IMG/VR virus record: IMGVR_UViG_2706794673_000008
DNA: 4,927 bases
Strand: one strand, 5' to 3'
Origin: a virus
Taxonomy: Duplodnaviria; Heunggongvirae; Uroviricota; Caudoviricetes
Shown: piece by piece, positions 1-4,927 of the stretch
How the letters are laid out: each line of letters opens with the position of its first letter
Numbering within the stretch: the stretch's first letter is position 1
The notes under the pieces: model-generated
The model's database searches: none
What the model saw: the letters and a program-made list of their open reading frames with translations, nothing else
Told to the model about the DNA's origin: nothing
Made by a program: the position numbers and the translations under genes

Positions 1-110
1 TGAGGCAGCACCTGGCACGGCTGGGACGGAAGTCGCTGTCGTTCTCAAAATCGGTGGAGCTGCATGACAAAGCCATCGGGCATTATCTGAACATAAAACA
101 CTATCAATAA
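1..110 (+). CDS. insB: IS1 transposase InsB, C-terminal fragment (5' end outside window)
   Basis: Frame with codons starting at 3 reads ...[35 protein letters not shown] then TAA at 108-110, the recalled InsB C-terminus. Confidence 0.8.
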
Positions 111-125
111 GTTGGAGTCATTACC
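1..125 (+). mobile_element. IS1 right end (3' portion including the right terminal inverted repeat); the rest of the element lies outside the window
   Basis: Sequence 1-125 matches the 3' end of IS1 as I remember it, ending ...CAATAAGTTGGAGTCATTACC at 125. One difference from the canonical copy I recall (AAAGCC vs AAAGTC near position 73). Confidence 0.9.
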
Positions 126-235: not shown

Positions 236-301
236 GATTAGATGAATATTTATCGCGCAATGACATCATTTTTTAATAATAGTTCAAAAAAAGGGCTCAC
301 G

Positions 302-1384
302 ATGAAAAAATTAACAGTGGCAATTTCTGCTGTAGCTGCATCAGTACTGATGGCGATGTCTGCTCAGGCAGCTGAAATTTATAATAAAGACAGTAACAAG
401 CTGGATCTGTACGGGAAAGTTAATGCTAAGCACTACTTCTCCTCTAATGATGCAGATGATGGTGATACTACTTATGCCCGTCTTGGCTTCAAAGGTGAAA
501 CCCAAATCAACGATCAACTGACTGGTTTCGGTCAGTGGGAATATGAATTCAAAGGCAACCGCGCTGAATCTCAAGGTTCCTCCAAAGATAAAACCCGTCT
601 TGCCTTCGCTGGCCTGAAATTCGGTGACTACGGCTCCATCGATTACGGCCGTAACTACGGTGTAGCATACGACATCGGTGCGTGGACTGACGTCCTGCCA
701 GAATTCGGTGGTGACACTTGGACTCAAACAGATGTGTTCATGACTGGTCGCACCACTGGTGTTGCAACTTATCGTAACAACGACTTCTTTGGTCTGGTTG
801 ATGGTCTGAACTTTGCTGCTCAGTATCAGGGTAAAAATGACCGCACTGACGTAACTGAAGCTAATGGTGATGGTTTCGGTTTCTCCACTACTTATGAGTA
901 TGAAGGATTCGGTGTAGGTGCAACCTATGCTAAATCTGACCGCACTAATAATCAGGTTATCTACGGTAACAACAGCCTGAATGCATCTGGTCAAAATGCT
1001 GAAGTATGGGCAGCTGGTCTGAAATATGATGCGAACAACATCTATCTGGCTACCACCTATTCTGAAACCCAGAACATGACTGTTTTTGGTAATAACCATA
1101 TTGCCAACAAAGCACAAAACTTCGAAGTAGTTGCACAATATCAGTTCGACTTCGGTCTGCGTCCGTCCGTTGCTTACCTGCAATCTAAAGGAAAAGACTT
1201 GGGTGCGTGGGGTGATCAGGACCTGGTTGAATATATTGATGTAGGTGCAACCTATTACTTCAACAAAAATATGTCCACTTTTGTTGATTACAAAATCAAC
1301 CTGATTGATAAGAGCGATTTCACGAAAGCATCTGGCGTTGCTACCGATGATATCGTTGCTGTAGGTATGGTTTACCAGTTCTAA
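302..1384 (+). CDS. nmpC: Prophage-encoded general porin, NmpC/Lc (OmpC/OmpF/PhoE) family, 360 aa, apparently intact
   Basis: ATG 302 with AAGGG at 291-295. Signal peptide [23 protein letters not shown] then mature AEIYNK..., and C-terminal ...AVGMVYQF with terminal Phe typical of beta-barrel porins. Strongly resembles NmpC/Lc lambdoid porins from memory. The ORF-track start at 242 adds 20 non-signal residues and is not favoured. Confidence 0.9.
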
Positions 1385-1399
1385 TTTGATTACTAAAAG

Positions 1400-1455
1400 A
1401 TATGTTGCGGGAGGCTTTGCCTCCCCAACATATAAGTGGCTCCCTCAAGCCACTT
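1400..1455 (+). other. Two adjacent stem-loops in porin 3' UTR
   Basis: ATATGTTGCGGGAGGC / GCCTCCCCAACATAT (about 15-bp stem with one bulge, short loop) followed by AAGTGGCT-CCCTCA-AGCCACTT (8-bp stem). Read directly. Confidence 0.5.
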
Positions 1456-1520
1456 CCTTTAGGAGCACAACCTTGCTTCTAACTATATAAACCTTCTGTT
1501 ATATATTACCCTTTATTTTT

Positions 1521-1545
1521 GGGGGCGTTGCAACGCCCCATTTTT
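1521..1545 (+). terminator. Rho-independent terminator for the porin transcript
   Basis: Perfect GC-rich palindrome GGGGCGTTGCAACGCCCC (1521-1539; 7-bp stem around a TTGCAA centre) followed by ATTTTTAATAATTTTT. On the minus strand the stem is followed by A-rich sequence, so it is not a terminator in that direction. Confidence 0.65.
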
Positions 1546-1572
1546 AATAATTTTTAGTAAACAATTGGCATA

Positions 1573-1956
1573 TTAATTAGAGTTATTAACAACGATATCC
1601 ATCTCTAACCGGATATCTAATGCCATTAACATCCCTTCAATTATGCCCTCAGCCTTCTGTAACCTTTTCCCGATATAACCATCAGAGCAGCAATGCTTAC
1701 CTGCCAGTGACATGAATGTCATACCGACTACATAATAATCTACTAATAAATCGTGCAAATCGCTGTTGTTCTTTTTCAGACGGGCCATGCACCCGCAAAT
1801 AATCATCGCGTCATCGTCACAACATTGCGGGCGAGATTTTACTTTTGAAGTAATTAATCCCTTAAAACCGGCGGCAATGGACGACCAGGTCACATCTTCA
1901 TGATTATTAGCCGCCCACGCTCCCCAACGCTCAAGAACCATCTGAATATCACGCAT
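1573..1956 (-). CDS. quuD: Lambdoid late-gene antiterminator Q (QuuD-like), 127 aa
   Basis: ATG at 1956 with GGAG 7 nt upstream on the minus strand. Protein [24 protein letters not shown]... with Cys-rich CCDDD/CGC/HCC motifs, matching my recollection of DLP12 QuuD. The ORF-track TTG start at 1971 is rejected. Confidence 0.85.
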
Positions 1957-2041
1957 CAACTTACTCCACAAAAATCAGACCAGAACGCCAATTACAAGCA
2001 AAAATCAACAAAACAGTATTAGTTGATTGTTATCTCTGACT

Positions 2042-2182
2042 TCATACTCCTGCTCCTGTCAGGGTTTTGGCGTAATTCTTCAGTATTCGGTAATCGGTCA
2101 AAACAGAACCGGGGAAACGATATAAGCGCAGATGCCCCCAGCGGTGGCGAAGAAGTTCTGCCATATAAAACTCAAACATCAT
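2042..2182 (-). CDS. ylcG: Small nin-region protein YlcG-like, 46 aa
   Basis: ATGATG start at 2182 overlapping the rusA stop (ATGA); translation [46 protein letters not shown]; TGA at 2042-2044. Sits between rusA and Q as in DLP12. Not in the supplied ORF track (below its length cut-off). Confidence 0.6.
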
Positions 2183-2541
2183 TCATTCCCCATTTCGGTG
2201 ATGGTCAGTTCCAGCCTCCCACCTTTGGTAACAGGCATCTTCACAACGCGGTAATCAACGACCTGAGCATCATCCAGCCAGAAACCTGCTTTGGTGAGTG
2301 CGTCAAAAGCGGCTTTTTGCAGATTATCCAGGTCACGGCGACGGCGATCCGGCATGTGGCACTCAATACGGATTTTCACTGGCATAGCCAGGCCGATATC
2401 CAGCATTGCGTTTTTAATGATTCGGGTGACGTTATCGCGGTATGCCTGCCCTTCTGCGCTGATGTGTGTGCGCCCGCGATTATGGCGGTAATAGCGGTTA
2501 TTGCTCGGAGGCCAGGGTAATGTGATGCTGTAGGTATTCAC
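2179..2541 (-). CDS. rusA: Holliday-junction resolvase RusA, 120 aa
   Basis: GTG start at 2541 overlapping the ybcO stop (GTGA). Protein [26 protein letters not shown]...[13 protein letters not shown] matches recalled RusA essentially along its length. Confidence 0.9.
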
Positions 2542-2828
2542 GCCTTAATAACCCCCTCTTTCAGCCAGATAACCTGCGTTCTCGCCATACCTTCCAGCGC
2601 GCATTCTTTTGCATACTCAGCATCGACAAAATATGTGCGGCGGTCGATTTCGTCGTGACAGGCAGAACATGCAATGGTGGCAATCAGGTCTGGCGGTTTG
2701 ATACCGGTACCGCACAATCCAGCCAGCCGGATATGTGCCAGTACTGACGTTTCAGGATTGCCATTACATACGCCAGGGATTCTTACCTGGCATTCCCGAC
2801 CACGCGCTGCTTTTCTCAAATCAGCCAT
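2538..2828 (-). CDS. ybcO: YbcO-like nin-region protein (Cys-rich, putative nuclease, DUF1364-type), 96 aa
   Basis: ATG at 2828 preceded by AGGAGG; protein [37 protein letters not shown]...[11 protein letters not shown]... The ORF-track upstream start at 2867 is a TTG inside ninE and is rejected. Confidence 0.8.
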
Positions 2829-2991
2829 GATTCCTCCTTGCTGCCAGTCGCAACCATTTTTTATCAACCAGGCTAGCGGTATATCCGAGCAGTGTTGGTA
2901 TTTCGGATGGCTTCAGCTCAGGCTTACGCTTACGACGATTTGATACTCTGTAGATGTGCCCGTTCATGACACGAATAAGCGGTGTAGCCAT
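2821..2991 (-). CDS. ninE: NinE-family protein, 56 aa
   Basis: Hand translation of the minus strand: [56 protein letters not shown], stop TGA at 2821-2823. GGAGG upstream; start shares one base with the ybcN stop (TAATG); 8-nt overlap with the ybcO start. Not in the supplied ORF track (below its length cut-off). Confidence 0.75.
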   Translation of the reverse strand: MATPLIRVMNGHIYRVSNRRKRKPELKPSEIPTLLGYTASLVDKKWLRLAARRNHG

Positions 2992-3446
2992 TACGCCTCC
3001 TGCTTATCGCGCAGCTGCTGGTATTCACAGCTCTGCGGAATTGTCAGGTGGCAGCCGATATTCATCGCCCAGGCTTCGACTTTGCACAGGAAGATGTACA
3101 TCTCGCCGGTTTCCAGCTCTGACGTATGGCGGAGGGATTGGACGGTGGTGACCTCGCCGGACACGACATCTACACGGTCTTTGCTTTCGTAGCCGAGATA
3201 GGTGTGCTTCATCGCGTCTTTGACCCACTCAGGCGTAGCGAAGGTCTTGCCGCGGGCGATGAGATATTCGCTGATCTCCGTGTACCACATGTGGCTGAGC
3301 GCGTTCTGCGACAGGCTGCGCTTCTCGCGCCACGGCTTAACCTGCAGGCGTAAGCATTGCCCGGCATCCAGCAATGGCTGAATCTGCTGGCCGATGGCCG
3401 CGAAGTTACCGCGATGGAGTTTGATGCCGTCTACTGGCAGAGTCAT
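2991..3446 (-). CDS. ybcN: YbcN / NinB(Orf)-family recombination protein, 151 aa
   Basis: ATG at 3446 with GGGAGG upstream; contains an RSLSQNALSHMW motif resembling lambda NinB/Orf; position immediately upstream of ninE as in lambdoid nin regions. Confidence 0.85.
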   Translation of the reverse strand: MTLPVDGIKLHRGNFAAIGQQIQPLLDAGQCLRLQVKPWREKRSLSQNALSHMWYTEISEYLIARGKTFATPEWVKDAMKHTYLGYESKDRVDVVSGEVTTVQSLRHTSELETGEMYIFLCKVEAWAMNIGCHLTIPQSCEYQQLRDKQEA

Positions 3447-3538
3447 ACGGCCTCCCTAACGGAAACCGCAGAATGCAGAAAATCGCAGGTGCATTTCTGC
3501 ATCTGTGACAAGGTGATGAGTTCAGATTGTGGTCGCAT
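3443..3538 (-). CDS. 31-aa leader ORF translationally coupled to ybcN (possibly YlcH-like)
   Basis: Minus-strand ATG at 3538 directly after an in-frame TAA, with AAGGGGA upstream; translation MRPQSELITLSQMQKCTCDFLHSAVSVREAV; its TGA overlaps the ybcN ATG (ATGA). Identity with ylcH not verified. Not in the supplied ORF track (below its length cut-off). Confidence 0.35.
   Translation of the reverse strand: MRPQSELITLSQMQKCTCDFLHSAVSVREAV
3473..3502 (-). other. Inverted repeat ATGCAGAAA-N12-TTTCTGCAT inside the leader ORF, just upstream of the ybcN ribosome-binding site
   Basis: Perfect 9-bp arms read directly. On the minus-strand RNA it is followed by moderately U-rich UCUGCGGUUUCC; candidate attenuator or weak terminator. 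Confidence 0.3.
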
Positions 3539-3557
3539 TTAAGTCCCCTTAAATGCG
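3534..3557 (-). promoter_or_regulatory. Stem-loop (10-bp stem, 4-nt loop) enclosing the SD and start codon of the leader ORF
   Basis: CGCATTTAAG-TCCC-CTTAAATGCG on the + strand. On the minus-strand RNA the leader-ORF ATG (3538-3536) lies in the stem and its SD (GGGGA) overlaps the loop. Confidence 0.3.
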
Positions 3558-3594
3558 CAGAAGTCACCGGAGTTGTTCAGGCTCCGATGAGAGG

Positions 3595-3623
3595 ATTATG
3601 GCGGATTGATTACGATAAATCAA
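3595..3623 (-). promoter_or_regulatory. Candidate sigma70 promoter for the minus-strand nin operon
   Basis: Minus-strand -35 TTGATT (3623-3618), 17-bp spacer, -10 CATAAT (3600-3595). Would place a transcription start about 50 bp upstream of the leader ORF. Confidence 0.3.
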
Positions 3624-3645
3624 AACTATCTTGAAGCCAAAACAG

Positions 3646-3674
3646 TGATCTTCGCTTTAAAAACCTTGTATACT
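3646..3674 (+). promoter_or_regulatory. Candidate promoter for the + strand cargo operon (divergent from the nin promoter)
   Basis: -10-like TATACT at 3669-3674 with TG immediately upstream; -35 poorly matched (TGATCT at 3646-3651). Weak call. Confidence 0.2.
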
Positions 3675-3710
3675 TTCACCTAATCACAGCCAGAACTATG
3701 GATCTAACCA

Positions 3711-4088
3711 ATGACCAACAAAGAAAACAAAGATAAATATATTAACAAGTTCAAGAAAGAGCTTTCAAAATATATACAACCAACTGCTGGAGTGGACATT
3801 CAATTATTTAACTCTAAGGATGGTGGTGGTGTAATTAAAGCCACTTTGAATAGAAGTGGAAAAAGAAAATCATCTATTGCTGGTAATTTTACTAAATTAG
3901 GTGAGGCAATTACCTCGAGTGGGCAGAGGGTTTTTGGTGGTGATCTATCAAATGTGAATTTTTACGGAACAAATACGATTTTTGATGGAGATACAATATT
4001 TTTAATTAAATCACCTGATTCAGAGGAGTGGTCATCACAAAAAGCTTCCAAAGACGTAGAGGGCATCGTATTTGGAGGGAAAAAATGA
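3711..4088 (+). CDS. Hypothetical protein, 125 aa, soluble, Lys-rich N-terminus and Gly-rich beta-like core; AT-rich codon usage
   Basis: ATG 3711 to TGA 4086-4088; no signal peptide or TM segment; region is visibly much more AT-rich than the flanking nin genes. No family recognised. Confidence 0.6.
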   Translation: MTNKENKDKYINKFKKELSKYIQPTAGVDIQLFNSKDGGGVIKATLNRSGKRKSSIAGNFTKLGEAITSSGQRVFGGDLSNVNFYGTNTIFDGDTIFLIKSPDSEEWSSQKASKDVEGIVFGGKK

Positions 4089-4132
4089 TTAACATTACTA
4101 CTAAGGATGCACTCAAGTCAGTGGTGAAGTAA
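4085..4132 (+). CDS. 15-codon micro-ORF (MINITTKDALKSVVK) with a strong SD, overlapping the stop of the upstream gene; possibly the true 5' end of the downstream membrane-protein gene broken by a frameshift
   Basis: GGAGGG at 4073-4078, then A6, then ATG 4085 overlapping TGA 4086-4088 (ATGA); stop TAA at 4130-4132. Overlaps the open part of the downstream gene's frame between 4105 and 4129. Confidence 0.25.
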   Translation: MINITTKDALKSVVK

Positions 4133-4170
4133 GAGATCTAGTAATTCTTCTTGAAACTGATGGAAAAACG

Positions 4171-4512
4171 GTGTCTGATTATTTGCAGCCAATCCCTCCC
4201 AAAAAAGATACACACTGGAGCATGATTTTCATTCCGGTAGCAATTTATATACTACTTAATCTTGTATACATTATTGCTCACCCATTATTTCCTGAAAAAT
4301 ATCTAAAAACATCAACATCTATATTTCTATTCATTTCCTTCATATTAAGTGCAATAGTAGCATATTTTGTTTTCCATAAGCATAAATCTGCCACTCGATC
4401 CATATGCAGCTTAGTGTTCTTAGTGTTAATTGTAGGTGCTAACGTAGGGTTTATCAGTTACAGCGACCTAACACAAAAAGCGACGCAAAAATTAGATAGT
4501 TTGTCTAAATAA
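4171..4512 (+). CDS. Hypothetical small integral membrane protein (about 3 TM helices), 113 aa as drawn; start uncertain
   Basis: Three hydrophobic stretches (IFIPVAIYILLNLVYIIAHPLF, IFLFISFILSAIVAYFVF, ICSLVFLVLIVGANVGFISY). The GTG start at 4171 has only a weak SD; alternative in-frame ATG at 4222, or an upstream start at 4085 if a frameshift is assumed. TAA at 4510-4512. Confidence 0.55.
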   Translation: MSDYLQPIPPKKDTHWSMIFIPVAIYILLNLVYIIAHPLFPEKYLKTSTSIFLFISFILSAIVAYFVFHKHKSATRSICSLVFLVLIVGANVGFISYSDLTQKATQKLDSLSK

Positions 4513-4619
4513 TTATGTTGCCATGCGAAGTATGCATGGCTGCATGTCTGCCTTCCATTTAAAATGGGCTAAGACCTATAACCCTAAATATTATTCTTTA
4601 TTATCTTCTTTACCACTTC

Positions 4620-4850
4620 GGTGATGCTGCCAACTTACTGATTTAGTGTATGATGGTGTTTTTGAGGTGCTCCAGTGGCTTCTGTTTCTATCAGCTGTCC
4701 CTCCTGTTCAGCTACTGACGGGGTGGTGCGTAACGGCAAAAGCACTGCCGGACATCAGCGCTATCTCTGCTCTCACTGCCGTAAAACATGGCAACTGCAG
4801 TTCACTTACACCGCTTCTCAACCCGGTACGCACCAGAAAATCATTGATAT
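4620..4850 (+). mobile_element. IS1 left end (left inverted repeat plus 5' part of insA), truncated internally at about 4850
   Basis: GGTGATGCTGCCAACTTACTGATTTAGTGTATGATGG... matches the recalled IS1 left end. Similarity to IS1 stops after ...AAAATCATTGATAT (4850), where IS1 continues GGCCATG but the window continues TGTCAGCGCC. Confidence 0.9.
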
Positions 4851-4878
4851 TGTCAGCGCCAGTGATATAAGACGGTAA
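4675..4878 (+). pseudogene. insA: insA' : IS1 InsA truncated after about residue 58 and fused to 9 unrelated codons
   Basis: GTG 4675; [58 protein letters not shown] matches InsA, then IVSASDIRR and stop; the native InsA C-terminus is absent. Confidence 0.75.
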
Positions 4879-4927
4879 TTCGCCATTTGGATTGTCCGCT
4901 CCACCCAACATGTTGTTTCCTTAAGGT

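Follow-up and report, generated by a model that had tools for sequence, protein, structure and literature searches.

A single-base deletion in a prophage cargo gene of Shigella sonnei, very probably a young pseudogene

The second gene of a two-gene cargo cassette (genes A and B in what follows), carried by a prophage remnant of Shigella sonnei, very probably bears an authentic, lineage-specific 1-bp deletion that makes it a young pseudogene in a region that IS1 and IS21 elements are taking apart. It had originally been predicted, from the letters of the sequence, that the two overlapping reading frames at the start of gene B are the remains of a frameshifted gene; this main reading is borne out by the relatives, in which gene B is a single 142-aa open reading frame, the DNA studied here being one G short at position 4109. 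The whole stretch of DNA that was analysed (the window; 4,927 bp, position 1 being its first letter) is contig CWTL01000212.1 of the S. sonnei assembly GCA_001253255.1, as found by exact-protein look-up of its 113-aa product, which in the source is named 'Uncharacterised protein [Shigella sonnei]'; the contig (4927 bp) is a short one in a short-read draft assembly. The features discussed below are collected in Table 1.

Table 1. Coordinates of the features of the window and, in the last three lines, of the remote A+B loci in their own contigs.
Feature	Position	Strand	Remarks
IS1 right end	1-125	+	matching sequence in the IS1 of L003 and L004; precedes the porin gene and takes the place of the lysis region of the prophage
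Prophage porin	302-1384		part of the window gene order
quuD, ylcG, rusA, ybcO, ninE, ybcN	1573-3446	-	
Genes A and B	3711-4512	+	after the ybcN side of the gene order
Gene A	3711-4088	+	intact, 125 aa, soluble, phrog_18061; from the ORF list
GGAGGG Shine-Dalgarno element of gene B	4074-4079	+	spacing of 5 nt to ATG 4085; lies within the last codons of gene A
ATGA overlap	4085-4088	+	start of gene B and stop of gene A; RefSeq annotation of the intact gene begins here
15-codon stub	4085-4132	+	MINITTKD plus out-of-frame ALKSVVK; 5' end of gene B to the premature TAA 4130-4132
1-bp deletion site	4109	+	window GAT-G-CAC, all intact alleles GAT-GG-CAC; codon 9, Gly, GGC
Gene B remainder	4111-4512	+	intact codons 10-142, out of frame with their start; covers the last part of the conserved N-terminal segment plus the three transmembrane helices
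Second lesion, T>G	4397	+	CTA to CGA, Leu105Arg (codon 105 of intact gene B)
IS1 left end, 231 bp	4620-4850	+	IS debris in place of the prophage replication genes
IS21-family element end	4851-4927	+	cuts the right-hand IS1 after 231 bp
Remote A+B locus, L022	510-1174		4-nt overlap
Remote A+B locus, L025	213-996		17-nt overlap
Remote A+B locus, L027	6001-6767		2-nt gap

The prophage remnant and its borders

The window is a DLP12-like lambdoid prophage remnant with IS1 and IS21 debris at its borders, and its homology to E. coli prophages starts at position 126. In the E. coli relatives, lysis genes precede the porin gene and the replication genes P and O follow the cassette (gene P being found there in strains A7 and 536), whereas both flanks of the cassette region of the window hold IS elements instead of the lysis and the replication genes; the prophage is left without lysis genes on one side, and on the other it has lost P, O and anything that followed them. 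In L004, a longer contig of S. sonnei, the IS debris adjoins the chromosomal genes solA-bssS-dinI-pyrC, a further IS1 lying beyond the IS21 end and before these genes (L004, 5243-6010). Since both sides are replaced by IS elements and chromosomal genes adjoin them in L004, the region is to be regarded as the remnant of a decaying prophage.

The porin (OmpC/NmpC-like, 360 aa; region 126-1384) is intact; its start is now preceded, at a distance of 177 bp, by the IS1 end, in the place where E. coli relatives have a spacer of about 570 bp and the lysis gene essD, and this could alter porin expression. The remaining genes of the window have the same lengths as in the E. coli relatives, so that decay by point mutation is so far confined to gene B.

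Reading frames at the junction of genes A and B

Gene A, whose length equals that of WP_000182282.1 of E. coli, gives a full-length profile match to phrog_18061 (E=9.3e-85 over 1-125 of 125), a family without assigned function. Its last codons end with AAAAAA at 4080-4085, before the stop TGA at 4086-4088, and the C-terminal GGKK codons are the source of both the Shine-Dalgarno-like GGAGGG and the run of six A, the latter corresponding to the two C-terminal Lys codons; in the family alignment G122, G123 and K124 are invariant, and the A run is broken in the homologue L015 (AAAATAATG). The string GGAGGG-AAAAAA is thus accounted for by two ordinary constraints, namely the invariant C-terminal Gly-Gly-Lys(-Lys) of A and the ribosome-binding site of gene B. 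In divergent loci the latter reads GGAGGG, GGAGGA or GGTGGA, and the overlap of the two genes takes the form ATGA, GTGA or TAATG, with a single continuous B frame in each. As far as can be read from the sequence, the ATGA overlap points to translational coupling of A and B.

The stub opened by ATG 4085 reads ATG ATT AAC ATT ACT ACT AAG GAT GCA CTC AAG TCA GTG GTG AAG TAA, its first eight codons being identical to those of the intact protein. The downstream frame has its last stop at 4102-4104, is open from 4105 and ends at 4510-4512, so that the two frames co-exist over 4105-4129; its only start codons are GTG 4171, TTG 4183 and ATG 4222. No well-placed Shine-Dalgarno element precedes GTG 4171, and the GGAG before ATG 4222 is separated from it by just 1 nt. 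Of this frame, 4171-4512 (113 aa, from the GTG) is all that gene callers report. All that the original prediction had stated about the sequence (the Shine-Dalgarno element, the A run, the ATGA, the 15-codon frame, the frame open from 4105 and GTG 4171) proved exact, and its description of a downstream membrane-protein frame without a good start holds for GTG 4171 and ATG 4222 alike, neither of which has a well-placed Shine-Dalgarno element.

Comparison with intact alleles

The cassette is carried by 46 of 5426 complete E. coli genomes, at an identity of at least 99.5%, and in each of these 46 genomes the segment corresponding to 4070-4150 has 82 bases versus the 81 of the window; the two differ by one gap and are otherwise identical. 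The intact E. coli allele reads GATGGCAC where the window has GATGCAC (4106-4112), and the gap is placed at GATG-GCAC; apart from it, the junction alignment, 182 columns long, differs by one SNP, found in strain 536. In RefSeq the intact gene is annotated as a 429-nt CDS encoding WP_000608370.1 (142 aa), whose start ATG overlaps the stop of A and whose translation begins MINITTKDGTQVSGEVRDLVILLETDGKTVSDYLQP; 46/46 E. coli genomes have a single 429-nt CDS here, as does every divergent homologue compared at the DNA level.

On these alignments, the two-frame arrangement is best read as the trace left by the loss of one particular base next to 4109, and not as the outcome of chance. The original prediction had anticipated a fused protein of roughly 140 aa starting MINITTKD, arising from an indel within 4105-4129, and had proposed that the junction be aligned with homologous loci: a 142-aa ORF starting MINITTKDGTQ is indeed found in all 46 genomes, the missing G lies inside that interval, and the frames are fused in every E. 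coli genome and divergent homologue. The case that would have spoken against it, homologues with the same two frames, was encountered in none of the E. coli genomes, family clusters and divergent loci examined.

The deletion within S. sonnei

The allele was checked at the DNA level in loci L001-L010 and L019-L021, and the deletion was found in seven of them, L004-L010 (L005 being the window's own contig), which come from three independent kinds of source: assemblies of 2015 (GCA_0012...), recent NCBI assemblies (GCA_047...) and Logan assemblies of SRA runs. By exact-protein look-up, the 112-aa call from GTG 4171 was read in a total of 15 contigs, and the 113-aa 'Uncharacterised protein' calls of S. 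sonnei assemblies should be read as truncated annotations of the 142-aa gene. An exact-pattern scan of a species-representative genome collection, which apparently includes no S. sonnei genome carrying the allele, did not find it.

Two further S. sonnei contigs keep the G: L020 corresponds to window 275-4331 (4057 bases), the extra G being the sole difference, while L019 corresponds to window 2251-4454 and differs only by the kept G and by a T at 4397. Since these contigs match the window and yet keep the G, the deletion arose within S. sonnei. Compared with the window, four of the loci with the deletion allele (L007-L010) show changes at two positions only, 2155 and 4397, the latter being the site of the second lesion of gene B; the residue affected, Leu105, is invariant in 18/18 aligned members of the B family, and the substitution to Arg is confined to three assemblies of 2015, the window included, and always occurs on the deletion background. 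The order of events that follows from these sequences is the loss of the G from the ancestral sequence, followed by the T>G change at 4397 in the sublineage of the window; both changes are potential lineage markers.

The ends of several S. sonnei and metagenome contigs coincide in gene B: those of L020 and L021 fall at window positions 4331 and 4330, respectively, and those of L007-L010 at 4508-4511, at the gene B stop codon. The shared ends could reflect independent hits on gene B in other isolates, either by insertion of an IS or by a deletion that an IS mediated.

Conservation of gene B and consequences of the frameshift

The B family comprises 17 clusters at 90% identity, distributed among Escherichia, Enterobacter and Klebsiella, with identities down to 63%; 12 of the 17 clusters are exactly 142 aa long, the rest being longer start calls or shorter variants. 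The intact protein gives a full-length profile match to phrog_16940 (E=2.3e-96 over 1-142 of 142), which, like the family of A, is without assigned function. The best-conserved part of the family is the N-terminus, 31 of residues 1-36 being invariant, and over codons 1-36 in the frame of ATG 4085 the synonymous to non-synonymous counts against E. coli A7 are 12:5, 19:4 and 15:5; the invariant residues and these counts show purifying selection, in the relatives, on the N-terminus that has been lost here. In a hydropathy analysis with a window of 19 residues, B has three hydrophobic segments, for which the windows begin at 43-52, 74-82 and 100-111, and the AF2 model (pLDDT 72) places helices at 46-68, 71-100 and 103-141 after a short N-terminal hairpin-plus-helix; B is accordingly modelled as a conserved segment of about 36 residues followed by three predicted transmembrane helices.

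In the intact gene, ribosomes would start at ATG 4085, coupled to the termination of A via the ATGA overlap and the GGAGGG element. In the S. sonnei sublineage they would still start at this codon, but pass out of frame once codon 8 has been read and terminate at TAA 4130-4132, which is codon 16; the outcome would be a peptide of 15 residues, the remaining part of gene B having no efficient start. A product initiated at GTG 4171 would be devoid of residues 1-29 and one initiated at ATG 4222 of residues 1-46, in either case most of the family's best-conserved part. From this conservation we infer that the function of gene B is lost; the downstream frame is probably not expressed.

Alternative explanations

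Among the three origins that the original prediction had left side by side (an authentic inactivating frameshift, an error and a programmed event), it is the first that is supported, its inactivating effect being deduced from conservation. Were the frameshift an error of sequencing or assembly, the true sequence would have GG at 4109, with the 142-aa gene intact; the origin of the window from a short contig of a short-read draft, and the occurrence of intact alleles in further S. sonnei records whose background is otherwise identical, would be in keeping with this. The deletion, however, recurs in seven loci, the window's own contig included, from the three assembly sources, and the truncated 112-aa call was read in 15 contigs; a GG doublet does not count among the homopolymers on which short-read chemistry is error-prone, and the confinement of Leu105Arg to the deletion background is what is expected of a real lineage. 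Judged from its recurrence in independent assemblies, the deletion appears to be real and an artefact very unlikely. Programmed recoding, by which a -1 frameshift within 4105-4129 or slippage on the A run would restore the full-length protein, has in its favour the GGAGGG immediately before the run, which had suggested an analogy with dnaX, and the -1 position of the downstream frame relative to ATG 4085. Programmed -1 frameshifting of the dnaX type relies on a slippery A AAA AAG, on a Shine-Dalgarno element about 10 nt upstream and on a downstream stem-loop. The junction shares with it a Shine-Dalgarno-like element followed by an A run and a second frame at -1, but here the run has six bases only, precedes the start codon, lies outside the overlap of the two frames and is not in slippery register, it encodes the Lys-Lys of A and is interrupted in L015, and the Shine-Dalgarno element is the ribosome-binding site of gene B; the analogy therefore fails. 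Programmed frameshifting was in fact rejected on three scans: no X XXY YYZ heptamer occurs in the ATG 4085 frame within 4085-4132, the only two nearby (4077 and 4080) being upstream of the start codon and in the register of neither gene; the predicted RNA fold of 4070-4200 is no better than that of shuffled sequences (MFE -28.4 versus a mean of -25.2 kcal/mol, z = -0.89), so that no stimulatory structure is apparent; and an Rfam scan of the window matched no family. The two-frame arrangement, moreover, is conserved in none of the homologues examined (46 E. coli genomes, family clusters and divergent loci), and the allele is recently derived from an intact gene within one species; the chance that the junction is a programmed event is next to nil.

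The deletion might also have been selected because it yields a functional shortened B, initiated at GTG 4171 or ATG 4222 and perhaps deregulated or dominant-negative. The 113-codon frame is indeed still open, many isolates of S. sonnei have come to carry the allele, and GTG 4171 lies just 39 nt past the stop of the stub, which makes reinitiation conceivable; at a low level, this could give rise to a membrane fragment with the three helices. Against such a product stand the poor initiation signals already described for both codons and the loss of most of the conserved N-terminal segment; a radical change at the invariant Leu105, acquired after the deletion, fits relaxed rather than maintained constraint, and selection is not needed for an allele to spread in a clonal pathogen. 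We see in a selected, shortened B a slim chance, and regard gene B as a pseudogene produced by an ordinary deletion.

The A+B cassette

Genes A and B are adjacent in every case. In enterobacteria their place is in lambdoid prophages, where the replication module lies to one side and the nin region to the other; they are on the opposite strand, their neighbours vary, and their G+C content (0.32-0.39) is lower than that of the adjacent nin region (0.51-0.59). Prophages and metagenomic or chromosomal contigs were the only places where the cassette was observed; a tblastn search of A and B against deposited phage genomes gave no match. A scan for promoters over 3440-4625 found 6, compared with 4.5 expected from shuffled sequences, and no cassette promoter is claimed.

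By profile search the A family extends to 111 representatives at 50% identity, and in the three remote members examined, all from metagenomes, a B-like gene lies directly downstream (3/3; see Table 1 for coordinates); the B-like proteins have a head of about 30 residues with the motif S/C/N-[DE]-Y-[LF], followed by three hydrophobic helices. The presence of a B-like gene after each remote A makes A+B a conserved two-gene module well beyond the Enterobacteriaceae. The L027 pair is found in a non-prophage setting, next to PIN and DUF4160/DUF2442 genes, which are toxin-antitoxin-like.

Searches for function gave little. With Pfam, only sub-threshold transmembrane noise was obtained for the cassette proteins; the PADLOC-DB 2.0 defence-system models had no match to A or B at E<=1, NCBIfam and PDB sequence profiles gave no meaningful matches, the AF2 model of B had no match in BFVD at E<0.001, and a literature search on the RefSeq and PHROG identifiers of the cassette found nothing. 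The sole functional hint for the A family is P0118 (L023, 246-1589; 447 aa), in which an A-like domain (7-119) is fused to an HNH endonuclease domain (191-231). In L015 (3297-4980) the cassette stands beside a pair of genes whose weak Pfam hits are to colicin and colicin immunity, in the same prophage cargo region, which fits the idea of the cargo site as a hot spot for accessory modules. It was also observed that the 125-aa A and the 142-aa B fall in the same 90%-identity cluster (197 members; P0001) despite having no shared sequence, probably a clustering artefact, arising perhaps from a record that spans both genes.

It is a tentative suggestion, and one that we hold with some doubt, that A+B is an uncharacterised, widely scattered module, in which a soluble protein of ~125 aa is translationally coupled to one of ~130-142 aa with a short conserved head, cytoplasmic in this view, and three transmembrane helices, and that it may act in phage exclusion or abortive infection or have a toxin-antitoxin-like role. 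The suggestion of a novel module draws on the 111 A representatives, the B-like partner in 3/3 remote loci, the mosaic cargo position on the opposite strand and the HNH fusion. If it is true, the S. sonnei deletion allele and the isogenic intact allele would constitute a natural knock-out pair, and isolates of S. sonnei that match the sequenced stretch except for one base would be possible natural controls for studies of A+B.

Comparison with known systems

In its intact form, the A+B pair does not differ from other ATGA-coupled gene pairs of phages and prophages, with which it has in common the shared ATGA and the Shine-Dalgarno element inside the upstream gene; the difference lies in the window, where the coupling would now lead ribosomes into a dead end of 15 codons. 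A resemblance, and only a resemblance, can be drawn with RexA/RexB of lambda, a two-gene exclusion module of the prophage made of a soluble and a membrane partner: A+B likewise pairs a small soluble protein with a small multi-pass membrane protein and is low-G+C cargo whose strand is opposite to that of the phage early genes next to it. Unlike RexA and RexB, the A and B proteins are much smaller, and they have no sequence or fold similarity to defence models, the fold searches being uninformative.

The closest parallel is with the decay of Shigella genomes in general, in which frameshift pseudogenes and reductive evolution accompany the expansion of IS elements, the genomes of S. sonnei being rich in IS1 (Hawkey et al. 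2020, PMC7373316). Like the frameshift pseudogenes of Shigella, gene B has a single-base indel in its coding sequence, polymorphic in the species and fixed in a sublineage, lies in a region dismantled by IS1 and has then undergone a further degenerative substitution; nothing substantive sets it apart, except that gene B is prophage cargo and not a metabolic gene. In itself the finding matters little, as it adds one more young prophage pseudogene of S. sonnei, such as annotation pipelines mark as 'frameshifted', and beyond the frameshift the only question of some interest is the role of the A+B module. The locus fits the pattern of IS-driven decay of S. sonnei completely, and represents ordinary gene decay.
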